From an uncultured Gammaproteobacteria bacterium (GTDB taxonomy: Bacteria; Patescibacteriota; Patescibacteriia; SG8-24): a DNA stretch of 64,000 bases. A program made the translations under genes and the position numbers. Position 1 is the stretch's first letter, and every line of letters starts with the position of its first letter. Location: contig CAZBFO010000004.1 of NCBI GenBank assembly GCA_964491475.1, positions 67,290 through 131,289 of the forward strand, given 5' to 3'. Under the pieces are notes generated by a model. That model made no database searches, had not been told where the DNA came from, and saw nothing but the letters and a program-made list of their open reading frames with translations. Shown here piece by piece: positions 5,108-62,844 of this stretch.

Positions 5108-5220
5108 CGGCGAAAAAAGGGGCACACTAAGCCACGCCTCCGAGGCGTGGCTTTTCAGTACCGCGCGACGTGCCGGTTTGAGTGGAAAGAAAGCGTAAAA
5201 AATGCTATACTGATGAGACT

Positions 5221-14794: not shown

Positions 14795-14869
14795 GGTCCC
14801 ATCGTCTAACGGCTAGGACGACTCCCTTTCACGGAGTAAATAGGGGTTCGATTCCCCTTGGGACTACCA
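14795..14869 (+). tRNA. tRNA-Glu (anticodon TTC)
   Basis: cloverleaf folded by hand: acceptor GGTCCCA/TGGGACT, D arm GTCT-AACGGCTA-GGAC, anticodon stem ACTCC/GGAGT with loop CTTTCAC, T arm AGGGG-TTCGATT-CCCCT, encoded CCA; close to E. coli tRNA-Glu. Confidence 0.85.
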
Positions 14870-44875: not shown

Positions 44876-45879
44876 TGGAGTGCGGCGCGAAGGTTCGCCA
44901 AGTTATTTCTCATGACCGAAAGATAGTCTTGTCCCTGTGCCGGCGAATCCTGCTGCAATCCCTCGATCGGATCGAGCACCGATGTCTTTGCGCCGGTTTC
45001 GGCGGCGACCGTATCGGCCAGCTTCGGGCTGACCAGGCTCTCGAAGAAGATTGTACCAACTTTGCGCTTCCTCACGAAGGCGGCAATGTCGGCAAGTTCC
45101 TTTGGCGAGGGCTCGGCGTCAGGTGACAGGCCCGCGATCGGCACCTGGTTGAGGCCGTACGCCTTGGCCAGATAGCCGAATGCGGCGTGCGACGTGACGA
45201 TGTCCTTCTTCTCGCAGGAAGACAATCCCTTGCGGTAATCGGCATCGAGCGAATCCAGGTCATTTTTCAGGACGTCGGCATTGGCGCGAAAGGCATCCGC
45301 GTCGGCGGGATCGGCCTTCAGGTATGCCGCCGCGATATGATCCACCATTTGCTTGGCCAAGACGGGACTCAACCATACGTGAGGATCCGCCACATTCTGC
45401 CCCTCCTCCATCATGTGGTCGGTCATGAGGTCCTGACCGACGTTCACCACCAACGTATTGTCCCCGTCGAGGTTCTTTGCCACGCGGCCGCCCCAGGATT
45501 CCAAGCCGCCGAGCAGGATGACCATCTTGGCATCCTCCATTTCGGCGATATCCTGTGCCGTCGGCTCATAGTCATGCGGTTCCGCGCCGGCCGGCGTCAC
45601 GTTCACTACGGAGGCGCGGTCGCCGCCGATTCGCGAGGCGAGGTAATAGAGAGGATAGAAGCTGGTGACCACGCGCACCTTGCCGCCCGCCTCGGGAGCC
45701 TCCGGGGGCCGCACCGCAGGTCGCGTCTGCCACAAAAGGAATGCGCCGACGCCCGCTGCCAAGAGCGCGGCGGCAGTCACCAACGGTTGCCGCCAGTTCG
45801 GCTCTCGACCTTTCGAATCTTTCATTTGATCTGTCATAGCCATCATGGGGGGGTTGCCAATTGCTCTCCCTTCCAGCAT
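44863..45879 (-). CDS. znuA: metal ABC transporter substrate-binding protein (ZnuA/TroA family); start uncertain
   Basis: cluster 9 SBP blocks, H/D/E-rich loop; candidate starts at ATG 45879, 45846, 45837 or 45825, none with a clear SD. Confidence 0.75.
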   Translation of the reverse strand: MLEGRAIGNPPMMAMTDQMKDSKGREPNWRQPLVTAAALLAAGVGAFLLWQTRPAVRPPEAPEAGGKVRVVTSFYPLYYLASRIGGDRASVVNVTPAGAEPHDYEPTAQDIAEMEDAKMVILLGGLESWGGRVAKNLDGDNTLVVNVGQDLMTDHMMEEGQNVADPHVWLSPVLAKQMVDHIAAAYLKADPADADAFRANADVLKNDLDSLDADYRKGLSSCEKKDIVTSHAAFGYLAKAYGLNQVPIAGLSPDAEPSPKELADIAAFVRKRKVGTIFFESLVSPKLADTVAAETGAKTSVLDPIEGLQQDSPAQGQDYLSVMRNNLANLRAALQCRM

Positions 45880-45904
45880 AATGCAACATAGTTGCGTTTG
45901 TCAA

Positions 45905-46384
45905 ATGTCGAGCCCTATGCCGATCCCAAAAGAAAATCCCTTGGCTGTCCTCCTCCGCCAACGTTCTCTCAAAGTGACGCGCCTGCGCCTCGCCATCCTT
46001 GGCATCCTCCAAAAAGCCCACTCCCCCGTCGGCGCCCCCGAAATCATCACCGCCGCCAGGGAAGAAGGCGCGAATTACGTCACCGTCTACCGCGCCCTCA
46101 ACGCGCTCGAAAAATCAGGCATCCTCCGCCGCGTAAACCTCCGCCACAACCACGCCGACTACGAACTCCAAGACGACGGCGACCACCACCACATCATCTG
46201 CAAAACCTGCGGCAAAATCGAATCTTTCGAAAATTGCCAAATCGACAAGCTCACCAAAGAAATACTCTCCAAGAGCAAGGCGTTCGTGAACGTCGACGAC
46301 CACTCGCTGGAGTTCTTCGGCCAGTGCAAGAACTGCGCCCAGAGCCCACGCAAGACTGCTTTGCGCAGCAAGCAGCCGAGGTGA
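45905..46384 (+). CDS. zur: Fur family transcriptional regulator, likely zinc-responsive Zur
   Basis: Fur-family DNA-binding helix plus HHHxxCxxC and C-terminal CxxC pairs; divergent from znuA; ATG 45905 or 45917 preferred over the listed 45845 because a TGCAACataGTTGCG inverted repeat lies at 45882-45896. Confidence 0.75.
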   Translation: MSSPMPIPKENPLAVLLRQRSLKVTRLRLAILGILQKAHSPVGAPEIITAAREEGANYVTVYRALNALEKSGILRRVNLRHNHADYELQDDGDHHHIICKTCGKIESFENCQIDKLTKEILSKSKAFVNVDDHSLEFFGQCKNCAQSPRKTALRSKQPR

Positions 46385-48012: not shown

Positions 48013-48148
48013 GCCGAAGCGCATCACGCCTCCCGACGTCCGTCGGGAGGCTTTTTCTTTATGCCCTTGACCGTTCAGGTTGTGTCGGTAGGTGAGCGCT
48101 GCTATCCTCAAAATAGGGTTCCTTTCACGCCTACAGGGAGTACATCCC

Positions 48149-49009
48149 ATGGCGCAAAACACTCGTCAGCTGTTCTTCGCGTTCGTCCTTCTCTGCGTTT
48201 CCCAGCTGGTGGGTTGTGGCGCCGCGGCACCGCAGGCGGCAGCGGCAGCAATGCCGGCCGCGCCCGCAAGCAACGCAGGAGAAATGGCTCGCTATCGCCT
48301 CAACAGCGACGCGACCTACCGCATCGACGTGATCTCCCCCGACGGTCACGGCCACGGTTCCGGCGTCGTGATCTCGACCGAGGGGTACATCCTCACGGTC
48401 AATCACGTCGTCGACCATCCGGGCAACCTGTCCATCATGGTCTCGGAGGGCCCTGGCCCGCCCAAGACCTACCCGCTCCGGGTCATTGCCACCGACAAGG
48501 TGCACGACCTGGCCGTGGTCAAGGTCGAGCGGCGCTTCGCGAATCCCGCGATTCTCGAGGACATCCGCAACGTGCACCCCGGCGACGAGGTGTACAACAT
48601 CGGCTACCCGTACGACTACGGCGAGATGGTCGCCCGCGGCCACGTGATGCGCCTGCACTACTCGATGCCCGAGGACGAGAACGACAAGAAGCTCCCGGCG
48701 GACCGGCGCATCTACGTGCGCGACATGATCCTCTCGGACTTCCTGGCGGGCCCCGGCACCTCCGGTTCCGGCATCTTCCTCTCGTCGAGCGGCAAGCTGG
48801 TCGGCGTGATGCGCCTGCTCATCTGGCAGGGCGGCGGATACGTCGCGATGACGACCCGAGCCCTGGTTCCCGTGAACCAGGTCGAGGACTTCCTGCGGCT
48901 GTACCGCATTCCCCACGTGACGTCGGACGGCACGGTGGCCACTTACCCGCCGCTGCCTCCGCCGGCGCCGCCGGCACCTTCCGTTCCCACGCTGCAGCCA
49001 CATAAGTGA
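48149..49009 (+). CDS. trypsin-like serine protease (S1 family, catalytic triad intact), secreted
   Basis: signal peptide and lipobox LVGCG; His in ILTVNHVV, Asp in DLAVVKV, Ser in GTSGSGIF; ATG 48149 with SD AGGGAG. Confidence 0.7.
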
Positions 49010-49083: not shown

Positions 49084-50094
49084 TTATTCCACCCGCCAGC
49101 CTGTCGCCGCTTCCTTGATCCGGCCCGGCACGGTGAATCCGGCGGCCTTCTTGTGTCCGCCGCCGCCGAGCATCTTGGCCGGCAGCGATACGTCCGTATC
49201 GTCCGCGCTGCGGAAACTGCCCTTCACCTTGTTGCCCGGCACTTCCTTGAGGACCAGCACCGCCTTCGTATCCAAAAACTGATTCAGGAAGTTGGAAATG
49301 CCTTCCACATGCTCCTCCTCGACGCCTTCGGCGGCGACCTCGTGCTCGAAAATGGCAGTCGAGGAAACGCCCAGCTTCTCGTCGTGCTTGAGGCGCCCCA
49401 AAACGGTGCCCCACAGGCGCAACGACATCAGCGATTTGTTGCGCATCAGCTTGTTGGCGACCTCCTGGATTTTGCCGCCGCGCTTCACCAGATCGGATGC
49501 GGCGCCCAACGAAGTCCAGGTGGTCGCAGGGTTCGAGAAGTTGCCGGTATCGGTCAGGATGCCGGTGAGCAGGCAGGTGGAGATGGCGCGGTCGATGTCG
49601 GCGCCGGCGGTCTGCAGGAAGTCGTAGACCACTTCGGCCGTGGAAGACGCCGTGACGTCGAGGATGTTGATGTCGCCGTACCGCTCGTTGGTGGCGTGAT
49701 GATCAAAGTTGATGATGAACGGACGAGGAGACATCTTCGCCACCAAATCGGCGATGCCGGCGAAGCGGAGGTCGCCCGCGTCGAACACTGCCAGCACGTC
49801 GTGCTCGGGGTTTGCGAACACCGAAGGGTCGTTCGTGTAATGCTCCGTGCCCGGCATGTAGGCATACTGCTGCGGCACCTGGTCCTGGCAGTAACCGGTC
49901 ACTGGAATCCCCTCGCGCTGGCAAAAATTGTACATGGCGGCACCGGCACCGAGGGTGTCGCCGTCCGGTTTGGGATGCGAAACCGCCAGCACGCGTTTGG
50001 CGCGGCGGATGACATCGAGGGCGTTGCGGTGGAGATAGGCGATATCCATAAACGTTGAGCAAATCAACGTACCAACGCGACGCGACGCCGTCAA
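49084..50094 (-). CDS. nrnA: DHH-family phosphoesterase NrnA-like (oligoribonuclease/pAp phosphatase)
   Basis: DHH motif block HPKPDGDTLGAGAAM, DHH plus DHHA1 architecture; start may be ATG 50049. Confidence 0.8.
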   Translation of the reverse strand: MTASRRVGTLICSTFMDIAYLHRNALDVIRRAKRVLAVSHPKPDGDTLGAGAAMYNFCQREGIPVTGYCQDQVPQQYAYMPGTEHYTNDPSVFANPEHDVLAVFDAGDLRFAGIADLVAKMSPRPFIINFDHHATNERYGDINILDVTASSTAEVVYDFLQTAGADIDRAISTCLLTGILTDTGNFSNPATTWTSLGAASDLVKRGGKIQEVANKLMRNKSLMSLRLWGTVLGRLKHDEKLGVSSTAIFEHEVAAEGVEEEHVEGISNFLNQFLDTKAVLVLKEVPGNKVKGSFRSADDTDVSLPAKMLGGGGHKKAAGFTVPGRIKEAATGWRVE

Positions 50095-50187: not shown

Positions 50188-50916
50188 ATGCGCACCGCGT
50201 TTTTCGCCTTGCTGCTGCCGTTCTCCTTGAGCCTGTGCGACGATTCACCCACGCCCGTCGGCTCTCCTGCACCAGTGCAGCCCAAGCCGGCCGTCGCGGC
50301 GGAAACCGTCGAAACGGTGCTGCGCGTCGACATGGGCGGCAAGTATCGCGGCCCCGGCGTCGTCGTTTCCCCCGCCGGCTACGTGATCACGGCAGTCGAA
50401 AATCTGCCGGAGTACGTCTTCTGGAAGTACAGGGTGACCGTCGGCAGCGAGCGCGTTCCGGGGACCATCGTCGCCGTGGATGAACAGCTGGGCCTGGCGC
50501 TCATCCATGCCGACCGGCCGATCCGACTGTGCGCCACCTTCACTTCGCGCATCGATTTCAAGGCCGGCGACCCCGCTGTTGCCGTCGGCTATCTCGACTT
50601 CGACGGTGAGCCGCAGCTGGTGGAGCGGAGGCAGGTGCCCGCGACGATCGTCGAGGTCCATAAGCGCGGCGAGAGCGTCGGCCGTCTCGACTTGCGCGAC
50701 ATGACCACCGTTTCTCTCGAGCACGTCGAAGGGCGGCTGCACATCCTGGGCACAGGCGTCTTCTCGTCGAACCCCGACGCCTTCATCGGCATCATCGTCG
50801 GCACTTCCGAAAAGGCGTACGGGACGAGCACGCCCACTTCGCCGCTGTTCGTCGTCCCGTCGACCTCCGTGGCGACCTTCATGCGCCGTCACGGTACGGA
50901 ACCGAAAACGCAGTAG
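50188..50916 (+). CDS. trypsin-fold protein lacking the catalytic triad (pseudoprotease), lipoprotein
   Basis: aligns to the 48149 protease, but His is replaced (ITAVENL), Asp is replaced by Gly (GLALIHA) and there is no GxSGG serine motif; lipobox LSLC. Confidence 0.55.
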   Translation: MRTAFFALLLPFSLSLCDDSPTPVGSPAPVQPKPAVAAETVETVLRVDMGGKYRGPGVVVSPAGYVITAVENLPEYVFWKYRVTVGSERVPGTIVAVDEQLGLALIHADRPIRLCATFTSRIDFKAGDPAVAVGYLDFDGEPQLVERRQVPATIVEVHKRGESVGRLDLRDMTTVSLEHVEGRLHILGTGVFSSNPDAFIGIIVGTSEKAYGTSTPTSPLFVVPSTSVATFMRRHGTEPKTQ

Positions 50917-51034: not shown

Positions 51035-51745
51035 ATGGGTTCCGCGAAACGTTTCCGGCTCCTAGCCTTCTTGGCCATTGTCTTTTTCGCCGCGCTGGTC
51101 GGTTCGCCGACCGGGCCGTCGACGGCTGCGGCCGAAGAACCGCCACCGATCACGTCCAAGGCCGACAAGGCCACCGTGCGCATCGACGCCAACGGCAATT
51201 ACGTCGGAGTAGGCGTCGTCGTTTCTGCCAGCGGACACGTGCTCACTTCCGTACAGGCCGCGGGCAGCTGGCGCTACGCCAAGTTCACCGTCGGCGACGC
51301 ACGCCTTCCCGCAAACGTGGTGGACTTCGACGAGAGCCACGGCTTGGCGCTGCTCAAGGCGGCCGCCCCTCTCCAGAACGCGCCTGTCACCCTGGCTTCG
51401 GCCCGTGCCGCAAAGAACTCCGCGGTGATGCTGATCTGCTATCGGCAGGTGTCGAGCGAACCGCCGATGATCTCTCGTCGCAAGGACACGGGCCTAGTCA
51501 CCGACCCGTCATACGGCGGCGAATCGTCGGGGACGCTCGACCTCCGCGACCTGGAAATCGTCCGCGTGCGCGGCCAAGAACAGATGTCGCCCTACGCGTA
51601 CGCCCCCGTCATCTCCGCGAAAACCGGAGAAATCGAGGGATTCGTCATTGGCAACATGCGCCGCTACGACGTCACCGACGTGCTGGTGATGCCGGCAAGC
51701 GTCATCAGGACGTTCCTTCAGGCGCAGAAGGTGCCTCTTCCGTGA
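51035..51745 (+). CDS. trypsin-fold protein lacking the catalytic triad (pseudoprotease), secreted
   Basis: paralog of 50188-50916: VLTSVQAA replaces the His block, GLALLKA replaces the Asp block, no Ser motif; signal peptide. Confidence 0.55.
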   Translation: MGSAKRFRLLAFLAIVFFAALVGSPTGPSTAAAEEPPPITSKADKATVRIDANGNYVGVGVVVSASGHVLTSVQAAGSWRYAKFTVGDARLPANVVDFDESHGLALLKAAAPLQNAPVTLASARAAKNSAVMLICYRQVSSEPPMISRRKDTGLVTDPSYGGESSGTLDLRDLEIVRVRGQEQMSPYAYAPVISAKTGEIEGFVIGNMRRYDVTDVLVMPASVIRTFLQAQKVPLP

Positions 51746-51841: not shown

Positions 51842-54160
51842 ATGCATCTCCAAAAGCTCGAACTTGTCGGATTCAAGTCGTTTGCCGAAAAGGCCGAACT
51901 CGATTTTCTCTCGCCCGCCAACGGAGGCAAGGGCATTACCGCCGTAGTCGGCCCCAACGGTTCGGGCAAATCCAACGTCGCCGACGCCATCCGCTGGGTG
52001 CTGGGCGAGCAGTCGCTCAAGCTGCTCCGCGGCAAAAAGGCCGAGGACGTCATCTTTTCCGGTTCCGAAAAGCGCTCCCGCTCCGGCTTTGCCGAAGTCA
52101 CCCTCTACTTCAACAACGAGGACGGCAAAATGCCGGTCGACTTTTCGGAAGTGGCCATCTCCCGCCGCATTTACCGCGACGGCGACTCCGAATACCTCAT
52201 CAACAAGAACAAAGTCCGCCTTGCCGACATCCAGCTGCTCCTGGCCCAGTCCAACTTCGGCGCGCGCTCCTACTCGGTCATCGGCCAGGGCATGATCGAG
52301 GGTGTGCTCATTGCGACGCCCCAAGAGCGTAAGGAATTCTTCGACGAAGCCGCCGGCGTAAAGCAGTTCCAGCTCAAGCGCCACCAGTCGGTAATCAAGC
52401 TCGAAGCCACCCGCGAAAACCTGCAGCAGGCCGAAATGCTTTTGGCCGAAATCGAGCCCCGCATGCGCTCGCTCGCCCGCCAGGTGAAGCGCCTGGAGGA
52501 GCGCGGCAGCATCGAAGAAGAGCTGCACGCGCTCAAGCACCAGTACTACGGCAGCCTGTGGTTCGACCTCAAGAAGCAGATTGATGCCCGCGGCGCGACC
52601 GTGGCAAAGCTCGAAAAGGAATGGCGCGAAAAGGAGTCCACGCTCGATTCTGCCAAGGCCGAACTGTCCTCTTTGGAAATCGAAGAAACCGGCAGCGACG
52701 CCTTCTCCGCGCTCCAGGGCGACTACGAAAAGCTGCTCGAGGAGAAGAACCGCCTCCGCAGTGCCGAGATGACCGCGCGCGGCAAGATCGAAATAGCCGA
52801 ACAGGTGAAGAAGCGCGTGGCCGCTTCGGTGGCAGCTGCAAAAACCAGCATGCCGCTCTCCAAGATCATCGAGGAGATCGGCAGCGTCGCCAAGCGCCAG
52901 GACGCTTTGGTAGCCCGCGTGCGCTCTGCGAAGACGCTCGAAGCAGTGCAGGCGGTGTTGCCGGAATTGGAGAAGCTAACCGGCGACGTCGAAGCTCTGC
53001 GCGACCGTCTGGAACGCCCAGTGGCCGAGCCACAGGCCGAAAAGTCGGCGGCAGAACAGGAAACTGACCCGGCGCTGCTCAAGGAAGTCGCCGACCTCGT
53101 TGCGGGCATCTCCGCCCTCGACGTGAAGCTGCGCGAGGCCCAGTCCAAGCTCCAGACCTACAACCAAGGCGAGATGAAAAAGAAGGAAAAGTTCTTCTCC
53201 CTCCAGCGCACGCTGCAGGAGAAGATCAACGCCGCGCACCAGCTTGAACGCCGCCTTGGCGACGAGCGCGTGGAGCAGGCCCGCCTGGACACCCGCCGCG
53301 AGCAGCTCGAATCCGAAATGGCTGCCGAGCTCGGCGAAAAGGCCAAGCACGTCCGCGACAGCTTCACGCCCACCGACGACCCGGCCCAGCGCCCCGACGC
53401 CGTGCTCCCCCAGATGAACCGCCTCAAGTACCAGCTGCAGCTCATAGGCGGGATCGACCCGGAGGCGGTCAAGGAATACGAGGAGACCAAAGGCCGATTC
53501 GACTTCCTCGAAGGCCAGACCAGCGACCTTCGCAGGGCCATCGACGACTTGGACCGCGTCATCGCCGAACTCGACATCACCATCAAGGCCAAGTCCGAAT
53601 CGGCCTTCCGCCAACTGAACCGCGACTTCAACGACTACTTCAAGCAGCTGTTCGGCGGCGGTCATGCCGAATTGATCCAGCTCCGCGAAGAGCCGAAAGA
53701 TGAGGACGACGAAGGTGCGGTCGCCGAAGGCACACAGGAAAAAGACGAACCCAAAGCCCAGAAAAAGGCTTCGGACCACATCGTCGGCATCGACATCCAT
53801 GCCACTCCCCCGGGCAAGAAGATCAAGAACATCGCCATGCTCTCCGGCGGCGAGCGCGCCCTGATCTCCATCGCGCTCATCTGCGCCATCATGAACAGCA
53901 ACCCCTCGCCGTTCGTGGTGCTCGACGAAGTCGACGCCGCGCTTGACGAGTCCAACGCCGACAAGTTCGCCAGCATCATCGAGACCCTGGCCGAGAAGAC
54001 GCAGTTCATCGTCATCACCCACAACCGCTACACCATGCGCAAGGCCAACGTCCTCTACGGCGTGACCATGCGGCAGGACGGCACCTCGATGCTGCTCTCC
54101 ATCAACCTCGACGAGGTCGGCACGCTCGCGAACGCCAGCAAGGAGAAGATGACCGTCTAA
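51842..54160 (+). CDS. smc: SMC-family ATPase lacking a hinge domain (772 aa)
   Basis: SMC-specific N-terminal block LELVGFKSFAEK ... GPNGSGKSNVADAIRWVLGEQS and C-terminal block LSGGERALISIALICAIM ... VLDEVDAALDE ... FIVITH; about 450 aa of coiled coil with no glycine-rich hinge. Confidence 0.8.
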   Translation: MHLQKLELVGFKSFAEKAELDFLSPANGGKGITAVVGPNGSGKSNVADAIRWVLGEQSLKLLRGKKAEDVIFSGSEKRSRSGFAEVTLYFNNEDGKMPVDFSEVAISRRIYRDGDSEYLINKNKVRLADIQLLLAQSNFGARSYSVIGQGMIEGVLIATPQERKEFFDEAAGVKQFQLKRHQSVIKLEATRENLQQAEMLLAEIEPRMRSLARQVKRLEERGSIEEELHALKHQYYGSLWFDLKKQIDARGATVAKLEKEWREKESTLDSAKAELSSLEIEETGSDAFSALQGDYEKLLEEKNRLRSAEMTARGKIEIAEQVKKRVAASVAAAKTSMPLSKIIEEIGSVAKRQDALVARVRSAKTLEAVQAVLPELEKLTGDVEALRDRLERPVAEPQAEKSAAEQETDPALLKEVADLVAGISALDVKLREAQSKLQTYNQGEMKKKEKFFSLQRTLQEKINAAHQLERRLGDERVEQARLDTRREQLESEMAAELGEKAKHVRDSFTPTDDPAQRPDAVLPQMNRLKYQLQLIGGIDPEAVKEYEETKGRFDFLEGQTSDLRRAIDDLDRVIAELDITIKAKSESAFRQLNRDFNDYFKQLFGGGHAELIQLREEPKDEDDEGAVAEGTQEKDEPKAQKKASDHIVGIDIHATPPGKKIKNIAMLSGGERALISIALICAIMNSNPSPFVVLDEVDAALDESNADKFASIIETLAEKTQFIVITHNRYTMRKANVLYGVTMRQDGTSMLLSINLDEVGTLANASKEKMTV

Positions 54161-54182: not shown

Positions 54183-54416
54183 ATGAACCAATATTATTCG
54201 GCCTTCGGAGGCGGCCACTACTGGGCGGTCGGCCTGCTCCTGATGTGGGCGCTCCCCTGGAAAGCCTGGTCGATGTGGATCGCGGCCAAGCAGAACCAGA
54301 AGATCTGGTTCATCGCGCTGCTGGCGGTCAACACCGCCGGCCTGCTCGAGATCCTGTACATCTTCGTCTTCAGCAAGCATTACGCCAAACCCAAGACGGG
54401 CGGCCAAAAGGAGTAA
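54183..54416 (+). CDS. small two-TM membrane protein
   Basis: 77 aa, two hydrophobic helices rich in W; weak SD; followed by a hairpin terminator. Confidence 0.4.
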   Translation: MNQYYSAFGGGHYWAVGLLLMWALPWKAWSMWIAAKQNQKIWFIALLAVNTAGLLEILYIFVFSKHYAKPKTGGQKE

Positions 54417-54535: not shown

Positions 54536-55234
54536 TCAGGCCGGCGCGCCGCCCGCCTTCTTCTTCATCTGCTCGATGAGCGCCTTGGCCTTGGCCGCAC
54601 GGACCGCGTCCGCGCTGCTGCCGCCGCTGGTGCTGGCGAGCGCCTCGTTGAGCCGCTCGTCCTGCACCGCGCCTTCGCGCTTCATGCGGGCCGCGATGTC
54701 GTCGACCGAGACGGCGCCGGCGCCGTTCGAGAGCGCCGCCACCTGCGTCAGCGCGTCCGCCGCGTTCTTCTTGGCGTTGGACGTGCGCTGCATGTTCTCG
54801 AGCCGGTTGATGTTGCGAATCAGCTCGGTCTTCTTGGCAGACAGCTTGTTGCTGGCCTCGGCCATGCCATCGGCGACCTTCTTGGCGTCGGCCAGCGCCT
54901 GTTCCTGCTCCGCGAGCGTCTCCTGCAAGGTGACGACCTCCTCCATCAGCGTGGTGGCCACGTTGTCGTTGGACGGATCATCGTCGCTGAGGAGCATCTG
55001 CGCGTTGGCGGTGTTCTCGTCGATGCGGTGCTTGGTGCCGTCGACCGCCGCCTGCGCCATGCCGACGTCGGCCCGTGCCGCCGCCGCATGGCGCTTCAGG
55101 TTGTTGGACTCGTCCTCGATCTTCCGCACCTGCTCCTTGCAGGCCCCGACGCTGTCGAGGTCGATGGCTGCGTCGAGCAGAGCGTGGATGTTGGAACCGA
55201 TGAGGGTGCTGATCTTGTCGAAGATTCCGGCCAT
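54536..55234 (-). CDS. pspA: PspA/IM30 (Vipp1) family protein
   Basis: N-terminus MAGIFDKISTLIGSNIHALLDAAID matches the PspA/IM30 amphipathic helix and first coiled coil; about 230 aa all-helical; terminator downstream. Confidence 0.8.
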   Translation of the reverse strand: MAGIFDKISTLIGSNIHALLDAAIDLDSVGACKEQVRKIEDESNNLKRHAAAARADVGMAQAAVDGTKHRIDENTANAQMLLSDDDPSNDNVATTLMEEVVTLQETLAEQEQALADAKKVADGMAEASNKLSAKKTELIRNINRLENMQRTSNAKKNAADALTQVAALSNGAGAVSVDDIAARMKREGAVQDERLNEALASTSGGSSADAVRAAKAKALIEQMKKKAGGAPA

Positions 55235-55300: not shown

Positions 55301-57592
55301 TCAGAGGTCGTCGTTGCTGCCGTCGTTTCCTCCGCCCGACGAGTCGTCGGAGCTGCCCAAGTCGTCGCTGCCGCCCATGAGTCCGCCACCGCCGCTGTCC
55401 AAGTCGGACGAGGGGGAGGTGTAGGAGCTCGAGTCGTCAGTGCCTCCGTCGAGGCTGTCGTCGCCGCCCATCAGTCCGCCGCGGGACTGCTGCGGGTAGC
55501 CGAGCGACGAGTTGTCGTTTCCGTTGTTGCGCGAGCCGATGGCCGCGCCGACAGCCACCCCGCCCGCAAAGGCGATGGAGGCGTCGACTGCCGCCCGTTG
55601 GCGCGCAGCTTCTTCGTCGATACGACGACGTTCCGCAGCCGATTCGACCGCCGCCGCTGCCTGGGCGCGCATCTGCACGTTGTGTGCCGCGTCGCCGCGT
55701 GCGCTCTGCAGCACGTCGGCGGCCACCTTCGTGGCGACCTCGGCTGCAGAGACCAGTGCCAGATAGTCCGGCTTGGTCGTCCTTCGTACGGTTTCTTCGG
55801 CCGGCAGCTTGGCCTCGGCATCGCGGAGCTGCTGCAGGAGGTTGCCCTCCAGCACGTCCTCGATATCCGCGGCGTTCGCGGCGATGAAGCGGTTGGCTTC
55901 TGCCACGGCCGCACGTGCGGACGCAAGCTTGGCGGGCGTTTCGGCCTTGGCGGCCTGAAGCCTCTGCCTCGTCGCCGTGAGGGCAGTCAGGTACCCGGCG
56001 GCCTTGGCAAGCCGTTCTTCGGCGTCGCCGAGGAACTGCTCCGCGCCCTTCCAGTCCTGCTGCTCCATGCCGACCGACTTGGTCGCGGCGTCGCAGCTTT
56101 GCGTCGCCGACTCCGCCCCGGAGGCGGCGTTGGCGACGTTGTTCCGGACGGATTCCCAGGACGTCGACACGAATCCGCTTTGGATCGCGGCGAAGTCCTT
56201 CTTGCCCGTTTCGATGTCCGCTGCGGTAGAGGCGATGCTCGCCTTCACCCTGGCGATACGGGCCTCGATGGCCTGCTTGCGCGAGACCAGACCCTTGGCG
56301 TCGGCACCGGCCTTCTTGGCCTTCACCGAACCGGAGCTGCAGGTGGTGGTTGCCGCGGCCGCTCGGCCTTCGCCGATTGCCGCAGTAGCCGTCTCCTGGT
56401 CCGCAATCGCTTCTGCCAACGCGGATTCCAGATCACCGGTCTTGAAACCGGCTTTCTGCACCTCGGCGATGTCCGCTGCCGCCGCCTCGATGTCCTTGCC
56501 CAGCTTCTCTAATGCGGGCTTGGCCTGATCGGCCGCCCGCTTGATCTCGCCGAGCTTGTTGTCGAGCGCGGTCTGGCTGCGCTTGGCGTCGTCGAGCCCG
56601 TTGAGCAGCTTGTCGTACGACTTCTCGATCGACTCATACTCTTGGACCGACTTGCCGTCATCGTCGGGATTCGACGATTGCGACAGCCTGCCGTACTGCT
56701 TGGTCGCCTCTGCCGAGCGCGTCTTGAGCGCGTTCAGCAGCGCGGTGAGCGAACGGGCATCATCCGGCGAACAGCCCTTCGATGCCGCAGTCACCTTGGC
56801 TTCCAGCACGGTCATTGCCGTGGGGCTGAAAGCCTCGATTTCCGTGGCGCACGACGTGGCCTTGTTCTTGGCGTTCTGCTGCGCGGCCTTGGCTTCCGCC
56901 TTGGACCGCCGCACGAAGAAGAAGGCGATGCCTCCTCCTGCCAGCACCAGAATGCCGAGGAACACCCACAGCCCTGCCGACGAACCGCCCGAAGACGGCG
57001 CCGGAGTGACGACAGTGGGTGCCGGAACGGGAGCGGGCACCGGCACGACAGGAATCGGCGCGGGCCGCGGCGCGACCTGCGTCGGGGCCGGCGGCTGCAC
57101 CGCGACGGGAGACCCGCCGAGCGCGCCGCTGATGCCGTTCAGTCCGCCGACTGCCGCGCCGGAGTAATCCCCGACGTTGAAGCGCGGACCGATCTGACTG
57201 GTCTTGATGCCCTGCCACTGCGCGTTGAGCCGGTTTTGGAACCGGCTGCCGGCATAGACGTTGGCTTTTCCCTTGTTGGTCGCGGGGTCGCGGTACAGGA
57301 CGAACACGAGCAGGTCGCTGCGTGCCGCCGAACCGCTCTTCCACGACTGACAAGGGCGAATCATCCCGGGGATGTCTTCGTAGGTGGCCAGCGATGCGGT
57401 GGTGCGCACGCGCACGAACGCGCCTTGCGCCGCGAGCCTCTGGGCCGCGGCGGCGACGGAATCGCCGCTGCTTCCGAAAAGCCCGGCATCGTCACCGACG
57501 ACCTGGTCGCAGGTAGCCGCCCGTGCGGTCCCGGCGAAGCAAAGCGCGGTGACCAGCATGGCCATCGCCGCGAGCAATTGTCCTAGTTTCAT
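55301..57592 (-). CDS. TPM-domain (TLP18.3/Psb32/MOLO-1) membrane protein with long coiled coil and Gly/Ser/Asp-rich C-terminus
   Basis: ATG 57592 with SD AGGAGAG gives a signal peptide; TPM-like domain (LFGSSGDSVAAAAQRLAAQGAFVRVRTT); Pro-rich linker, TM helix, about 400 aa of Ala-rich coiled coil; the listed ORF start 57817 is over-extended. Confidence 0.65.
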   Translation of the reverse strand: MKLGQLLAAMAMLVTALCFAGTARAATCDQVVGDDAGLFGSSGDSVAAAAQRLAAQGAFVRVRTTASLATYEDIPGMIRPCQSWKSGSAARSDLLVFVLYRDPATNKGKANVYAGSRFQNRLNAQWQGIKTSQIGPRFNVGDYSGAAVGGLNGISGALGGSPVAVQPPAPTQVAPRPAPIPVVPVPAPVPAPTVVTPAPSSGGSSAGLWVFLGILVLAGGGIAFFFVRRSKAEAKAAQQNAKNKATSCATEIEAFSPTAMTVLEAKVTAASKGCSPDDARSLTALLNALKTRSAEATKQYGRLSQSSNPDDDGKSVQEYESIEKSYDKLLNGLDDAKRSQTALDNKLGEIKRAADQAKPALEKLGKDIEAAAADIAEVQKAGFKTGDLESALAEAIADQETATAAIGEGRAAAATTTCSSGSVKAKKAGADAKGLVSRKQAIEARIARVKASIASTAADIETGKKDFAAIQSGFVSTSWESVRNNVANAASGAESATQSCDAATKSVGMEQQDWKGAEQFLGDAEERLAKAAGYLTALTATRQRLQAAKAETPAKLASARAAVAEANRFIAANAADIEDVLEGNLLQQLRDAEAKLPAEETVRRTTKPDYLALVSAAEVATKVAADVLQSARGDAAHNVQMRAQAAAAVESAAERRRIDEEAARQRAAVDASIAFAGGVAVGAAIGSRNNGNDNSSLGYPQQSRGGLMGGDDSLDGGTDDSSSYTSPSSDLDSGGGGLMGGSDDLGSSDDSSGGGNDGSNDDL

Positions 57593-57663
57593 CGTTTCAA
57601 TCTCTCCTGTTTGCGTTGTCAACGACCGTTTCAGCGCCAGAGGCCTGTGCCACGTAGCACAGA

Positions 57664-57692
57664 CAGATAACGATAAATAAGCCGTTTTGTCA
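57664..57692 (-). promoter_or_regulatory. sigma70-like promoter (TTGACA-N17-TTATCT) for the TPM-pspA operon
   Basis: minus strand TTGACAAAACGGCTTATTTATCGTTATCT about 70 nt upstream of ATG 57592. Confidence 0.4.
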
Positions 57693-57743
57693 AGGCGGGC
57701 GGGAATAAAAAACCGGCAGCCAGATGCCGCCGGGTAGAGTGTC

Positions 57744-58043
57744 CTATCGCCCTTCGGAACGCGGAATCGCCTTGCCCAGCACCTCGTCGAGCAGTTCGAC
57801 GACCTTGTGCGGGTCATGCTTTCCGCCGGAGAGGTAGGACCGCATGGTCAGGCAGGCCCGATACAAATCGGGTGCCGCCGCCATCAGCGCCCACAGTTGC
57901 CGCGGCGTCAATTGCCGCTCTTCCAGGTTCGGCCTCTTGCCGACCAGCACCGGCACGACCACCGGGTCACCGAGGTTGAAGCGGTCTCCCGCATCCCCCG
58001 AGGGGACCATCTGTTTCCTTGCTCGAGTCCTTTTTGCCGCCAT
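57744..58043 (-). CDS. hypothetical protein (99 aa)
   Basis: ATG 58043 with SD GGGAGA; divergent from rpsP. Confidence 0.4.
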   Translation of the reverse strand: MAAKRTRARKQMVPSGDAGDRFNLGDPVVVPVLVGKRPNLEERQLTPRQLWALMAAAPDLYRACLTMRSYLSGGKHDPHKVVELLDEVLGKAIPRSEGR

Positions 58044-58155: not shown

Positions 58156-58314
58156 CGTGCTGCTGTAGGAACCCGGGGTTGCTCATCCCGTCAGTTCCGC
58201 AAACTCGCGGCGTCCGACCGCATCGACCGAGACCATCTATCTCGAGACTGCATCGGACCTGCCGCATCCAAGGTGCCGAACCGGCACTTTCAATTATCTT
58301 TCATCCACTCAAGC

Positions 58315-58623
58315 ATGCTGGTCATCCGCCTCACCCGCGTCGGCAAGAAGAAGCAGCCGACCTACCGCCTCATCGTCCAGGAGAAGTCGCAGGACCCCTG
58401 GGGCAAGTCCAAGGAAATCGTCGGCAACTACAACCCCCGCACTAACCCCAAGTCGATCAGCCTCAAGGCCGATCGCATCAAGTACTGGATCGGTCTGGGG
58501 GCCCAGCCGTCCCCGTCGGTCCACAACCTCTTGGTGGACGCCAAGGTCCTGACCGCCGAAAAGCGGCCCGCCGCCTCCGGCACGGGCAAATCCGGCGCAA
58601 AGGAAGCCGCAGCCAAGGAGTAA
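58315..58623 (+). CDS. rpsP: 30S ribosomal protein S16
   Basis: MLVIRLTRVGKKKQPTYRLIV is the canonical S16 N-terminus; ATG 58315; C-terminal Ala/Lys-rich extension. Confidence 0.9.
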   Translation: MLVIRLTRVGKKKQPTYRLIVQEKSQDPWGKSKEIVGNYNPRTNPKSISLKADRIKYWIGLGAQPSPSVHNLLVDAKVLTAEKRPAASGTGKSGAKEAAAKE

Positions 58624-58640
58624 AAAACAGACATGTCAAA

Positions 58641-58668
58641 ACGCCCCCGCAACGGGGCGTTTTTGATT
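58641..58668 (+). terminator. Rho-independent terminator after rpsP
   Basis: ACGCCCCcgcaacGGGGCGT hairpin followed by TTTTGATTTT. Confidence 0.5.
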
Positions 58669-58695
58669 TTCCTGATGAAGTTATCAACGTCCGTT

Positions 58696-58724
58696 TTGAC
58701 AGCCTCCACGCTCGCTTTTATACT
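58696..58724 (+). promoter_or_regulatory. sigma70-like promoter TTGACA-N17-TATACT for the KH-domain gene
   Basis: TTGACA at 58696-58701, TATACT at 58719-58724. Confidence 0.5.
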
Positions 58725-58835
58725 AGACGCAGTTCCCGCCTCGCGGGAATCCGCGCCGAAAAGGACGCGGCTATTCATTAGAAGGATGCACCTTCTTCAC
58801 CCGGAGCGACCGGGAAAGAGCGTCACCGCCAAGAT

Positions 58836-59207
58836 ATGGCAGAACGGTTTTCCGATCAGGAATTCGTCGAATACGTCGTTAAGGGAATTGTCGGTCATCC
58901 GGAAGACGTCAAAACCGAAAGGACCATCGATGAGCGCGGAGTCCTCATCACGCTGCACATCAATCCGGAAGACATGGGCTACGTCATAGGCCGCCAAGGT
59001 CAGACCGCCCGATCCATCCGCACGCTGCTCAAGATCGTCGGCGCCAAGAACAACGCCCGCGTGAACCTCAAGATCTACGAGCCGGAAGGCAGCCGCCGCG
59101 CCCATCGTGAGCGCCAGGAAGCCGAAGGCCACCATGAGCCGGCCCACGCTGCCGCCTCGGTCAGCCGCGAGGACATCGACACCTCGGCCGTCGACCTCAC
59201 CATCTAA
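58836..59207 (+). CDS. KH-domain RNA-binding protein (YlqC/UPF0109 family)
   Basis: GxxG KH loop in YVIGRQGQTARSIRTLL; conserved neighbour of rpsP; His/Glu-rich tail. Confidence 0.8.
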   Translation: MAERFSDQEFVEYVVKGIVGHPEDVKTERTIDERGVLITLHINPEDMGYVIGRQGQTARSIRTLLKIVGAKNNARVNLKIYEPEGSRRAHRERQEAEGHHEPAHAAASVSREDIDTSAVDLTI

Positions 59208-59218
59208 GCGACCAAAAA

Positions 59219-59250
59219 GACGTCCGATTCGCCTCGGACGTTTTTGTTTG
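59219..59250 (+). terminator. Rho-independent terminator
   Basis: GACGTCCGAttcgccTCGGACGT hairpin followed by TTTTTGTTTG. Confidence 0.55.
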
Positions 59251-59336
59251 CGCCAGCACCGCAAACCCTTGATTTTTACGCGGAAACGTGTCATAACTTC
59301 ACGCAGTCCCTTCAAAGGACGGAAAAGGAACGTGCC

Positions 59337-60287
59337 ATGGCAGGCACCGCCAAAAAAGAATTCACCGGCCGAAACGACGGCTTTCAGAAGTACATCCAGC
59401 AGTGGGTTGGTCACGCGCTGCTCACGAAGGAACAGGAATACGACCTGATTCGCCGAGCGCAGGAAGAGGAACGCCAGCGCCTGGCGAACAAAAGCAAGCT
59501 GAAGCGACTCGGCAGAAAGGGCGCACGCCCGAAACGGAAGCCGAAGAAGCCCGTGGCGATGACCGCACTGGTCAATGCCAACGTGAGGCTGCTGCTCTCC
59601 ATCGCGCAGAAGTTCAACCGAGCGGGTGCGCTCCGCGGCGTCTACCTGGAAGACCTTTTTAACGTCGCCGCAATCGGCCTGAACAAGGCCGTGCTGAAGT
59701 TCGACTTCACCATGGGCTGCCGGCTCAACACCTATGCGACCTGGTGGATAAGGCAGGAACTGGCCAGGGCGCTGAACGACCTCGGCAGCACCATCCGGCT
59801 TCCCGTCTACGTGACCGAAGATCGCCGCAAGCTGCGGCGAGCGGCAAACCTCTACCAAGCCGAATTCGGACGCGAACCGGACGAAGAGGCGCTGGGCCAG
59901 ATGGTCCGCCTGCGTTCAGGCCGGGTGCAGGCCGTTTTGGACGCGCCTGCCGAGCCGTACTCGCTCGACAAACCGGCGCGAAGCCATGACGGGTCCTCCG
60001 ACATGCCCGGCACCATGCTGGACATGATGGCCGACACCGCGCACGAAGGGGAGTCCGCCGAGGACAAGGTGCTGCGTTCGGAAAAATACGCAGCGCTGAA
60101 CGCCGCTGCCGAACGGTGCCTCGACGAAAGGGCGCGCGAGATCTTGCGCTGCCGCTTCCGCGACGAGATGACGTTGGACGAGACCGCGGCCGCCATCGCC
60201 GAGCCGGGCGAAATGCCGCTCTCGCGCGAACGCATCCGGCAAATCGAAACGGCCTCGCTCGAACGGCTCCGCAAAGTCCTGCGGTAG
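59337..60287 (+). CDS. sigma-70 family RNA polymerase sigma factor (regions 2-4; no region 1.1)
   Basis: region 2 blocks (LLSIAQKF, RLNTYATWWIRQ), region 3, region 4.2 HTH (LDETAAAI...SRERIRQIE); ATG 59337 with SD GGAAAAGGAACG. Confidence 0.8.
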   Translation: MAGTAKKEFTGRNDGFQKYIQQWVGHALLTKEQEYDLIRRAQEEERQRLANKSKLKRLGRKGARPKRKPKKPVAMTALVNANVRLLLSIAQKFNRAGALRGVYLEDLFNVAAIGLNKAVLKFDFTMGCRLNTYATWWIRQELARALNDLGSTIRLPVYVTEDRRKLRRAANLYQAEFGREPDEEALGQMVRLRSGRVQAVLDAPAEPYSLDKPARSHDGSSDMPGTMLDMMADTAHEGESAEDKVLRSEKYAALNAAAERCLDERAREILRCRFRDEMTLDETAAAIAEPGEMPLSRERIRQIETASLERLRKVLR

Positions 60288-60293
60288 TCCCGC

Positions 60294-60323
60294 GCCCGTC
60301 CTTCATGGACGGGCTTTTTGTTT
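60294..60323 (+). terminator. Rho-independent terminator
   Basis: GCCCGTCCttcatGGACGGGC hairpin followed by TTTTTGTTTG. Confidence 0.5.
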
Positions 60324-60378
60324 GCCGAAGCGCTCTCGTCTGGTGGCGCCGGTGCTGTCATACTTACGAGACTCGCCT

Positions 60379-62121
60379 ATGTCAGCCCGCACCCGCCACC
60401 TGTTCGCCTTCTCCGCATGCGCCCTGCTGGCCGTCGTTTTCACTTGGCCGCTGGCAGCGCACATGAACGCCAGCTTCCCGTCAGCCGGCGTGTGGACCGC
60501 CGGCGACCCCGAAATGTTCATCTGGTGGTTCGATGTCGCCGCCAAGTCGTTGCGCGGCGCCTTGCCGACCGCTGCGTCAAAAATGCTGTTCTGGCCCAAC
60601 GGCATCAACCTGCTGGCCGGCTATGACGGCCCGCTGATGCTGGCCGTCGGCGTCCCCCTCACGCTGCTTTTCGGCAATCCCGTCCTAGCCTACGACCTGT
60701 TCATCCTGACCGCGCTTGCAGGCTCGGCGTTTGCCGCATACTTGTTGGGAATGCGGCTCACCCGTTCCTGGCCTGCGGCCATGTTGGTCGGCTTCCTCTT
60801 CGGCTTGAGTCCCTACATGCTTGTGCGTGCCGCGCAGCACCCCAACCTGCTGATGACCGGAACGCTGCCGCTGCTGCTGCTTGCCGCCTTTCGCTGGCTC
60901 GACCGACCGAAAGACAAAAGCTCTTACGCCTGGCTGGCATTGGCCGCGGCCGCAAATGCGGCATCGTCATGGTATTACGCCATCGCGGGACTCATTTTCC
61001 TGGCGATACTTTTTCTTTTCCAAGCCGACACCTGGCGAAAAAATGCGGCGCGTCTGATCGCTGCAGTTGCGGCCGTCGGCGTGGGAACAGGAATAGTCGC
61101 GCTTCCGCTGCTGTTCTCTCCCACCGGGGGAAGCGCGCCGTCCAGCGCGGCGTTCGTCGCTCGCATGGGTGCCAAGCCCATCGACTTCATCCTTCCGAAC
61201 GCGCTCACCAACGTCTTCGGCGATCTGCGCCGCGGCCTTCGCGATGACCCGCCAGCCTCCGACACGTTGCCCACGCCGAACGTGTTCGAACGGTCCTCCT
61301 ACTTCGGCATTCCGCTGCTGGTACTGGTTGCCATCTTCGCATGGCGACGGCGCACTTCAACATTGCCCGTGCCCGCTTTCTGGATTTGCGCCCTGATAAC
61401 GTTCACCTTGCTGTCCCTCGGCACCGAGGTCACCGTCCTCGGCCAACATCTCCCGATGCCCTTTGCGCTGCTGCGAGGTCTCTTTCCCTTCTCGCTGGCA
61501 CGCGTCCCAAACAGGTTCTTTGTGGGCGCCCTCCTCTGCGCGGCCGTGATGGCCGGCGACGTCGCTGCCCGATGGCTGGCGCAAAAACGCCTCCTTACCT
61601 TCGCGAATCGGGCCACGGCGGCCTGCTTCGGCATCATGTTCGTCGCAGAACGGCTCATCTTCCCCTATCCGATCTTCACCCAAGAAGTCTCCTCTTTCTT
61701 CGTAAGCATGGCCGCAGACCGGGACTTTTATGCCGTTGCCGACCTTCCCATCCCCTACACGGAGTTCAGCGAGTTCGACTACTACCAGATCCATCATGGC
61801 AAACCGACGACCGGCGGCGCCTACTATTACCCCGCGTACACGCCCGAGGTGCTTTCCTTCATCCGCAAGAATCCGCTGCTGGCCGCTTCGCTGTGCACGC
61901 CGCGCTTGCCCCACCCGAATCCCATCGACCTTGCTCGCGAAGTCTGGCCCGCCTTCCGCGGACAGAACGTCCGCTACGTCATCATTCACAACCTCCTGCT
62001 CCACGACATCCCGGAATGCGCCGGCATCCAGCAGACGCTCCGCGAGACGTTCCGGGAGCTCACGCCGTACTTTGCCGATGGCGACATCACCGTCTACCGT
62101 GTCCCCGCCCCAAACCGGTAG
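60379..62121 (+). CDS. large polytopic membrane protein, possibly GT-C-type glycosyltransferase-like
   Basis: about 12 TM segments in the N-terminal 400 aa, then a soluble C-terminal domain; ATG 60379 (MSARTRHLFAF). Confidence 0.5.
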   Translation: MSARTRHLFAFSACALLAVVFTWPLAAHMNASFPSAGVWTAGDPEMFIWWFDVAAKSLRGALPTAASKMLFWPNGINLLAGYDGPLMLAVGVPLTLLFGNPVLAYDLFILTALAGSAFAAYLLGMRLTRSWPAAMLVGFLFGLSPYMLVRAAQHPNLLMTGTLPLLLLAAFRWLDRPKDKSSYAWLALAAAANAASSWYYAIAGLIFLAILFLFQADTWRKNAARLIAAVAAVGVGTGIVALPLLFSPTGGSAPSSAAFVARMGAKPIDFILPNALTNVFGDLRRGLRDDPPASDTLPTPNVFERSSYFGIPLLVLVAIFAWRRRTSTLPVPAFWICALITFTLLSLGTEVTVLGQHLPMPFALLRGLFPFSLARVPNRFFVGALLCAAVMAGDVAARWLAQKRLLTFANRATAACFGIMFVAERLIFPYPIFTQEVSSFFVSMAADRDFYAVADLPIPYTEFSEFDYYQIHHGKPTTGGAYYYPAYTPEVLSFIRKNPLLAASLCTPRLPHPNPIDLAREVWPAFRGQNVRYVIIHNLLLHDIPECAGIQQTLRETFRELTPYFADGDITVYRVPAPNR

Positions 62122-62166
62122 CCAGCTTGTCAGGACGCCTCTTTCACGCTAGAGTAGCCAGTCACT

Positions 62167-62844
62167 ATGCGATTCGACGTACTGACCATCTTCCCCGCGA
62201 TGTTCGAGAGCTATTTCTCGGAATCCATCATCAAGCGCGCTCGCGAGCGCGGCCTTTTGGACATCCGCGTGCACGATCTCCGCGCCTGGGCCGAAAACAA
62301 GCACAACCGCGTCGACGACAAGCCCTACGGCGGCGGTCCGGGCATGGTCATGCAGGTCGGACCGTTCTATCGGGCGCTCAAGGCCCTCAAAGCGCTCACG
62401 CCGACCACGCGCAAGAAGATCCGAATCATCCTCATGTCCGCCAAGGGCAAGCGCTTCACGCACAAGGACGCCGTCCGCCTGGCAAAATACTCGCGCATCG
62501 TGCTGCTGTGCGGCCGCTACGAGGGCGTCGACGAGCGCGTGGCCGAACATTTGGCTGACGAGGAAATCTCCATCGGCGATTTCGTGCTGACCGGCGGCGA
62601 ACTGCCGGCCATGACGCTCATCGATTCGGTTTCGCGCCAGGTCAAAGGTGTCCTCGGCAAAAGCGAATCGCTGGCGCGCGAATCGCACGCCGAACCGGGC
62701 CTGACCGAACATCCCCAATACACCCGTCCTGAAGTCTTCGAGCCAAAGAAAGGCCAACGCTGGTCAGTCCCCGACGTTCTGGTGGGCGGCGACCACGCCA
62801 AAATCGAGGCTTGGCGCAAAAAGCAGCAAAAGCCGGCCAAGTAG
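62167..62844 (+). CDS. trmD: tRNA (guanine37-N1)-methyltransferase TrmD
   Basis: MRFDVLTIFPAMFESYF N-terminus, SPOUT knot motifs (YGGGPGMVM, LLCGRYEGVDERV), 225 aa. Confidence 0.9.
   Translation: MRFDVLTIFPAMFESYFSESIIKRARERGLLDIRVHDLRAWAENKHNRVDDKPYGGGPGMVMQVGPFYRALKALKALTPTTRKKIRIILMSAKGKRFTHKDAVRLAKYSRIVLLCGRYEGVDERVAEHLADEEISIGDFVLTGGELPAMTLIDSVSRQVKGVLGKSESLARESHAEPGLTEHPQYTRPEVFEPKKGQRWSVPDVLVGGDHAKIEAWRKKQQKPAK

Follow-up and report, generated by a model that had tools for sequence, protein, structure and literature searches.

The hinge is regarded as a hallmark of SMC (structural maintenance of chromosomes) proteins, and in current models it is their dimerisation point, a DNA-binding site and possibly a DNA gate. 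In this study, we have examined an SMC homolog of 772 amino acids (aa), encoded at 51842..54160 on the plus strand of a 64-kb stretch of DNA from a member of the Patescibacteria (candidate phyla radiation, CPR), hereafter the window, in which this domain is absent. The closest experimental precedent is the work of Burmann et al. (2017; PMC5344682), who found that natural arm lengths are multimodal, that function in B. subtilis follows periodic regimes of arm length, and that a B. subtilis Smc carrying the Rad50 zinc hook in place of its hinge is functional, arm length and not hinge type governing function. The sequence set of that survey was seeded with hinge alignments and filtered by coverage of reference domains, and hinge-less SMCs are therefore very unlikely to have been included in it. 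The closest natural precedent is an abundant oceanic cluster of “hinge-less” SMCs assigned to marine Actinomycetes (Sussfeld et al., 2025, Environ Microbiome 20:65; PMC12153180), for which neither a CXXC motif nor a co-occurring regular SMC was found and no mechanism was proposed. Patescibacteria, Solirubrobacterales, the orthology of the locus, arm-length classes and the anatomy of the apex are absent from that report, apart from which we found nothing relevant in the literature on hinge-less SMC or ScpA/ScpB in Patescibacteria, CPR or Saccharibacteria.

The window protein resembles this published cluster, which is apparently the sole SMC of its genome, in its SMC-type head, its antiparallel coiled coil, the lack of a hinge and of CXXC, and in being nearer to SMC than to Rad50/SbcC. 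Unlike the cluster, with which it was compared by published description, it belongs to another phylum. It is a member of this recently reported and uncharacterised hinge-less kind, probably from an independent lineage.

The protein is clearly an SMC. Its open reading frame (ORF) has an ATG start and includes the stop codon, and its GC content at third codon positions (GC3, 0.84) is like that of real genes in a window of 62% GC. The Pfam SMC_N domain covers aa 3-749 (1.4e-69), and the NCBIfam Smc equivalog TIGR02168 matches in two stretches (627.2 bits, 5.6e-188), above its cutoff of 567.35, the first stretch running from aa 3 to 407 along positions 2-401 of the 1181 in the model. The closest solved structures by sequence are the Smc heads of B. 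subtilis and Geobacillus (5xg3, 1.5e-102; 3zgx), and when an AlphaFold2 model was compared with the PDB by Foldseek, prokaryotic Smc head, coiled-coil and joint structures and Smc-ScpA complexes came top (5xei, 5xg3, 3zgx). In the ATPase head, the N-terminal half (aa 1-173; 51842..52360) aligns residue for residue with the B. subtilis Smc head (5xg3/3zgx) and carries the Walker A motif GPNGSGKS (aa 37-44, nt 51950-51973) and the Q-loop (aa 148-151, nt 52283-52294). The C-terminal half (aa 605-772; 53654..54157), which aligns with aa 320-430 of 5xg3 (E 9e-32), carries the LSGGE signature (aa 667-671, nt 53840-53854), the Walker B motif and D-loop (aa 691-702, nt 53912-53947, with LDEVDAALD at aa 694-702) and the H-loop ITHN (aa 725-728, nt 54014-54025). 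A preliminary description of this gene had given the same coordinates and quoted a series of SMC signatures, all of which were located in the protein (GFKSFA at aa 10-15, GPNGSGKSN at aa 37-45 and DAIRWVLGEQS at aa 48-58, besides LSGGE, the D-loop and the H-loop). The ATPase residues K43, Q149, S668, G669, G670, E671, D695, E696, D698 and H727 are invariant among 65 sequences down to 49% identity. The heads are intact, and strong purifying selection maintains their capacity to bind ATP, to engage in an ATP sandwich and to hydrolyse ATP.

The signature motif of ABC and SMC ATPases makes contact with the ATP held by the opposite head. As the signature is invariant here and acts on the ATP of a partner head, ATP-sandwich head dimers would still form.

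Membership of the related families was also considered. RecN is rejected (TIGR00634, 49.7 bits against a cutoff of 407.85, RecN itself being about 550 aa), and so are Rad50 (models at 51-55 bits against cutoffs of 847-1000) and the archaeal ASRP (NF045487, 63.3 bits against 300). A zinc hook is likewise rejected, since the only cysteine of the whole protein is at aa 681 and no CxxC can be formed. With Rad50/SbcC and RecN, the protein shares an ABC head, an antiparallel coiled coil and the absence of a globular hinge. It differs from them in having no CxxC, in falling far under the cutoffs of their hidden Markov models (HMMs), in having no Mre11/SbcD neighbour and in finding Smc structures first. 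The preliminary description, which had seen neither a zinc hook nor RecN-like features, is therefore upheld on both points.

The absence of the hinge was established in several ways. Pfam SMC_hinge (PF06470) is absent from the 772-aa protein. We built hinge HMMs both from canonical and from CPR hinge-bearing SMCs and searched with hmmsearch without filters (--max) at E<=10; no match to the window protein was obtained, and nothing better than E 3.3 was found among 186 short, 74 mid-length and 9 long relatives, whereas hinge-bearing SMCs used as positive controls score 1e-28 to 1e-75 with the same models. Comparison of a profile of the protein's centre with a hinge profile by hhalign gave a probability of only 3-7%, and AlphaFold predicted no beta strand between aa 174 and 604. 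Alignments locate the loss: in the nearest hinge-bearing relative (P0168, 1002 aa), residues 1-319 and 616-1001 are the counterparts of residues 1-318 and 379-763 of the window protein, in which about 60 residues thus stand in place of about 297, the hinge included, and against a canonical 1186-aa Smc, residues 1-407 and 472-763 correspond to 1-398 and 925-1186. The hinge is thus absent from this SMC and not degenerate, a degenerate fold having been ruled out by Pfam, hhalign, the unfiltered HMMs and AlphaFold2, and the canonical mode of dimerisation would be lost as a direct consequence, both as proposed from the first reading of the sequence. A hinge supplied by a stand-alone gene is also rejected, with no such ORF in the window or at any hinge-less locus examined. 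The sole local match between centre and hinge in hhalign spans 10 residues and lays the CPR motif MPLSKI on the conserved hinge strand ATFLPLNKI (P = 0.005); this could be a relic of the hinge or a convergent helix cap, and we keep it as a curiosity.

What replaces the hinge can be read from the AlphaFold2 monomer model (65-sequence alignment, mean predicted local distance difference test score, pLDDT, of 76), in which a normal Smc head carries an all-helical centre of about 430 aa. The N-terminal coiled-coil strand, with neck and joint, is predicted at aa 174-317 (52361..52792) as helices 174-282 and 286-317 (pLDDT ~80-93) with a/d heptads and a break at 283-285. It is followed by an interruption at aa 318-339 (52793..52858), a variable loop with pLDDT <50 and 28% gaps, which is closed by the motif (M/L)PLSKII at aa 337-343, where P338 is invariant and I342 is conserved in at least 90% of the 65 sequences. 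The apex-proximal part of the N-strand (aa 340-391; 52859..53014) is modelled as helices 340-362, 366-370 and 373-391 (pLDDT 78-86), interrupted at 363-372, with an a/d hydrophobic density as in the arm. At the place of the hinge, the hairpin is closed by a tip loop (aa 392-412; 53015..53077; pLDDT <50) whose density of conserved hydrophobic residues is 0.05. The C-terminal strand (aa 413-604; 53078..53653) returns as helices 413-507, 518-536 and 541-604, broken at 508-517, and contains the motif E.KKK.KFF.LQR.LQ (aa 444-460, nt 53171-53221), with Q455 invariant and F451, F452 and R456 at 90% or more. The two strands agree in length, at about 195 aa (N-strand, 174-317 plus 340-391) and about 192 aa (C-strand), and the arm would therefore be a single antiparallel hairpin with its tip at 392-412. 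The preliminary description had read the centre as some 450 residues of continuous coiled coil; the helical, heptad-like character holds, but the region is about 430 aa long and consists of two strands of about 195 aa with breaks and a tip loop.

Conservation at the tip is of a limited kind. In the consensus of 179 sequences, the variable hydrophilic middle of the loop is flanked by the helix caps rLE.P and DPaL.kEL, and tip-specific conservation is confined to these caps. Conserved hydrophobic residues fall in a/d heptads at a density of 0.21-0.23 at the apex against 0.24 along the arm, and neither the 65-sequence nor the 179-sequence alignment shows extra conserved hydrophobic or small residues that would mark a dedicated dimerisation surface at the apex. 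We also noted a Pro-Leu-(Ser/Thr) motif at the N-strand break, 40-55 residues before the tip, which is invariant in CPR (MPLSKII, window 52850-52876, aa 337-345) and in the hinge-less Solirubrobacterales considered below (APLTLD, aa 326-331 of P0273).

Compared with B. subtilis Smc (1186 aa; PF02463 and PF06470), the window protein shares head sequence and fold, ATPase motifs, neck and joint, and the antiparallel coiled coil, and with bacterial Smc in general it shares a genomic site near rpsP-khpA-trmD. The differences are the missing hinge, an arm closed by a loop, strands of about 200 residues against about 357 in canonical Smc, and an acidic insert of about 28 aa in the C-terminal half of the head. 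This insert (aa 616-646; 53687..53779; pLDDT <50, predicted as disordered) is not found in canonical Smc. It measures about 28-30 aa and separates the F.GG.A strand from the signature motif, the spacing from GG.A to LSGGE being 59-63 aa in CPR-type and Solirubrobacterales SMCs against a fixed 31 in 46 canonical SMCs. It is seen in hinge-bearing as well as hinge-less CPR SMCs and in the Solirubrobacterales proteins P0273-P0392, with a net charge of about -5 to -9.

The genomic context identifies the gene further. The order DHH/DHHA1 - smc - rpsP - khpA - trmD, as in the window, is kept in relatives from 90% down to 50% identity. The DHH/DHHA1 phosphoesterase lies upstream on the minus strand (49084..50094) and is conserved beside the short smc at five loci (L001-L003, L005, L008). 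Downstream, on the plus strand, rpsP (S16), khpA (58836-59207), a sigma-70 gene (59244-60287), a membrane protein gene and trmD (62167-62844) extend over 58273..62844, all assigned by Pfam, and form the cluster that follows smc in canonical genomes. With the neighbour genes of the window as probes on loci from GTDB species representatives, we found the arrangement smc-rpsP-khpA-trmD to be common to the canonical smc of Peribacillus (L050, 1186 aa) and many short hinge-less genes, and also to the hinge-bearing smc of a Buchananbacteria genome (L033, 1039 aa) and to mid-length hinge-less genes (873 and 924 aa). Lying in the ancestral smc slot, the gene is therefore an smc ortholog and not an extra paralog, and we regard it, from sequence comparison as well as position, as the putative ortholog of bacterial smc. 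Between the two alternatives offered by the preliminary description, the reduced condensin (SMC) architecture is accordingly favoured, as the Smc equivalog cutoff is passed, Smc structures match best and the locus is the ancestral one; a distinct SMC-like ATPase finds no support.

The hinge-less design is not peculiar to this genome. Among the 120 best-matching proteins from a collection of 5.8 billion, all complete ones are 735-808 aa long, down to 49% identity, and have no precomputed hinge domain; where the source is named, it is Patescibacteria, Uhrbacteria or Parcubacteria. In an exhaustive search, the best 150 hits (representatives of clusters at 50% identity) fall at about 725-775, 850-925 and 975-1090 aa, and about 140 of these 150 are hinge-less. 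In all, the same architecture is seen in hundreds of homologues, most of them from Patescibacteria, at identities down to about 40%. The hinge-less state is clade-wide and common to a large part of Patescibacteria. A split, frameshifted or decayed gene is rejected (a split or frameshift had been named, like a degenerate hinge fold, as a finding that would overturn the original proposal), with the frame intact and so many homologues of the same length and design.

We measured the length between the heads, from the end of the N-head to the start of the C-head, by conserved landmarks. Hinge-less CPR proteins fall into short (417 aa, interquartile range, IQR, 415-421, n=153), mid (548 aa, IQR 543-554, n=50) and long (706 aa, IQR 700-715, n=9) classes, to be compared with 676 aa (IQR 670-682, n=11) in CPR-type hinge-bearing SMCs, 444 aa (IQR 444-445, n=109) in hinge-less Solirubrobacterales and 885 aa (IQR 884-888, n=42) in canonical Smc. 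Total sizes of the hinge-less CPR proteins (P0121-P0270; loci L017 and L023) have medians of 760, 885 and 1066 aa with almost nothing in between, and the steps from class to class are about 131 and 158 aa, or about 65 and 79 per strand. The apex profile of the short class also matches the centre of mid-class proteins. In a neighbour-joining tree of the heads, which has no support values, all CPR-type SMCs, hinge-bearing or not, form one clade beside Chloroflexota SMCs; the same tree interleaves the length classes and the hinge-bearing forms.

These natural classes recall the engineered Mini-Smc and Smc(Zh) chimeras (PMC5344682) in their shorter arms, the lack of a hinge fold and discrete arm lengths. 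With about 264 and 343 aa in each strand, the mid and long classes come close to the B. subtilis functional regimes of 253-267 and 321-373; the short class, with about 198 aa, falls between the natural modes published at 163 and 238 (PMC5344682). The chimeras, however, retain a strong dimerisation domain, hinge or zinc hook, and the natural protein has none that can be recognised.

Some observations on these relatives concern annotation. Although the window protein exceeds the TIGR02168 cutoff, the NCBI pipeline labels hinge-less relatives (P0089, P0118 and many others) “AAA family ATPase”, and hinge-less smc orthologs bearing this name are therefore invisible to gene-content surveys based on names. 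Several metagenome-assembled genomes (MAGs) that represent GTDB species and have a clearly CPR-type smc (L005, L008, L016-L018, L023) are titled “uncultured Gammaproteobacteria bacterium”, and some of the 120 nearest proteins are titled Binatia or Eisenbacteria; these titles are probably taxonomic mislabels or the result of mis-binned contigs. In one protein of 1425 aa (P0248), the SMC N-head begins only around residue 560-600 (query 43-266 aligning with 601-819), the cause being an N-terminal fusion or else an artefact of gene calling.

A second origin of hinge-less SMCs is suggested by MAGs labelled Actinomycetota. Two of these (L019, 65% GC; L021, 38% GC) carry a short hinge-less smc whose centre is unrelated to CPR centres, and both branch apart from the CPR clade on the head tree, again without support values. 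A search with the first of them uncovered a large clade in Solirubrobacterales/Thermoleophilia (P0273-P0392; 770-800 aa, on contigs of up to 1.57 Mb) with neither hinge nor CxxC, of which we found no report in the literature searched. In one Solirubrobacterales genome (L085), the hinge-less gene sits in a textbook cluster, plsX-acpP-rnc-smc-ftsY-ffh-rpsP-khpA-trmD-rplS, and AlphaFold2 models this SMC as a head and a helical hairpin with a confident four-residue tip. This loss of the hinge is, on the sequences compared, independent of that in CPR. Since the Actinomycetota-labelled hinge-less genes branch apart from CPR and have unrelated centres, the loss in Patescibacteria is probably also independent of that in the marine Actinomycetes cluster. 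The second MAG (an 89-kb contig, “uncultured Actinomycetota”) encodes a third short hinge-less smc, of 772 aa and beside rpsP-khpA-trmD, with a centre unrelated to those of both CPR and Solirubrobacterales, and this gene could be a counterpart of the cluster that Sussfeld et al. described from marine Actinomycetes.

The partners of Smc were sought with Pfam on the roughly 50 ORFs of the window and with jackhmmer, from PDB-derived seeds, on 7392 ORFs of at least 70 aa from the window and 84 smc loci (+/-10 kb). Neither ScpA nor ScpB was found in the 64-kb window, as the preliminary description had remarked for the genes adjacent to smc, nor within 10 kb of the 84 loci; canonical loci were equally negative, which makes this result uninformative genome-wide. 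No second SMC is present in the 64-kb window, and no assembly in the GTDB sample gave two smc loci.

Based on these results, we think it probable, with considerable reservation, that the protein is the organism's own Smc from which the hinge and some hinge-proximal coiled coil have been deleted, and that its dimer is joined at the head end as an ATP-gated clamp. Its role in chromosome organisation and segregation would be kept, the two subunits being joined by ATP-dependent head engagement; we infer that the head end would be the only site of dimerisation. Each arm would form an antiparallel hairpin of helices, with about 200 residues in each strand and a length of about 30 nm, which a short hydrophilic loop closes at the tip, and the two arms would act as rigid, length-tuned levers lying side by side with no hinge to join them. 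As arm length is very tightly conserved, the two tips would still have to meet in register, probably through a weak or transient contact needing no dedicated domain. If a kleisin is encoded in the genome, it could bridge neck and cap. In the main, the protein would work as a DNA clamp gated by ATP and as a kleisin-compartment ring. Several points weigh against this model. Arms kept constant to within +/-3 residues would make more sense with tips that have a specific action, which favours dimerisation at the tip; the laboratory precedent still had a dimerisation domain, the zinc hook (PMC5344682); neither ScpA nor ScpB was found in the 64 kb of this genome or around the relatives, a result shared by canonical loci; a second, hinge-bearing SMC may exist elsewhere in the genome; and the support is wholly computational and comes from uncultured organisms.

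The principal contender, which we judge rather unlikely though worth serious attention, is a ring that is still shut at its far end. In this scheme, the hairpin tips, that is the caps LERPxPE...DPAL with the adjacent helices, would make up a new, minimal element for dimerisation, such as a short bundle of four helices or a RecN-like overlapping antiparallel contact, and the resulting tripartite SMC-kleisin ring with shorter arms would entrap or extrude DNA like canonical Smc-ScpAB. Quantised arm lengths (417, 548, 706), kept within a few residues across sequences of about 45% identity, are the chief argument for it, being what would be expected if the tips meet in phase; the tip flanks and L386, L390 and P393 are conserved, short and mid classes share the profile of their central module, and in B. 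subtilis any dimerisation domain suffices (PMC5344682). However, the apex has no hydrophobic or small-residue seam beyond that of the arm (0.21-0.23 vs 0.24), its loop is hydrophilic, variable in sequence and length and modelled with low confidence, the conserved tip residues are typical helix caps, and the Solirubrobacterales tip is only a four-residue turn. A different possibility, which we hold to be improbable, is that the protein is an extra SMC-like paralog serving repair, like RecN or Rad50, or defence, with the gene for a canonical, hinge-bearing Smc located at another site of the genome. NCBI's label is indeed no more specific than “AAA family ATPase”, and hinge-bearing CPR-type SMCs of about 1000 aa do occur in related organisms. 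But the gene occupies the ancestral slot, as hinge-bearing and canonical smc do, the protein exceeds the Smc equivalog cutoff and falls far short of those of RecN, Rad50 and ASRP, no nuclease or defence partners lie nearby, two loci were seen in no assembly of the GTDB sample, and Sussfeld et al. saw no co-occurrence of their hinge-less cluster with a regular SMC (PMC12153180). An assembly deletion, a frameshift or a decaying pseudogene of a full-length smc, for which the unusual length alone could be invoked, is next to inconceivable in view of an intact frame with GC3 of 0.84, hundreds of homologues of the same design and tight length, invariant catalytic residues and conserved central motifs.

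A broader proposition, that much of Patescibacteria and, independently, Solirubrobacterales organise their chromosomes with SMC arms that are never joined at the far end, which would leave the complex open on the hinge side, and whose length is quantised, is tentative and on balance doubtful. If it were true, ring closure at the hinge and hinge-DNA contacts would be dispensable for SMC function in nature, and the reference for the length of an arm would be the other arm or the head module, and not a hinge; should ScpAB be absent as well, this would be a minimal SMC without kleisin or hinge. Natural hinge-less smc orthologs, selected in at least two phyla and with quantised arms, offer a ready-made evolutionary deletion experiment. 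With them one could test directly for which steps in the loading of DNA, its clamping and its translocation the hinge end has to be closed, and for which heads, neck and tuned arms are enough. Their compact size, about 760 aa, also suits them to structural studies. Finally, statements on the distribution of SMC in CPR bacteria may be incomplete, given the “AAA family ATPase” labels and the hinge-seeded survey.

The remaining observations concern the surroundings of the gene. Three paralogous secreted trypsin-like proteases (Trypsin_2; 48092-49009, 50188-50916 and 51035-51745, plus strand) flank the DHH gene upstream of smc, and the arrangement recurs in the relative at 90% identity (L001) and is missing from those further away. 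Just downstream of smc lies an ORF for a 77-aa membrane protein with two helices (54183-54416, plus strand), followed on the minus strand by a 232-aa coiled-coil protein (54536-55234), whose N-terminus looks PspA/IM30-like by eye and which has no Pfam match at E<=0.001, and by an 838-aa TPM-domain membrane protein (55301-57817) in which a long helical region is rich in Ala and the tail is rich in Gly, Ser and Asp. The content of this interval between smc and rpsP varies among relatives. Elsewhere, the window contains a znuA/ABC-3/Fur zinc-uptake cluster (43281-46384) and a PilB-type T2SSE ATPase (5182-6930), and the 64 kb gave a single Rfam or ARAGORN match, a tRNA-Glu(TTC) at 14795-14869.

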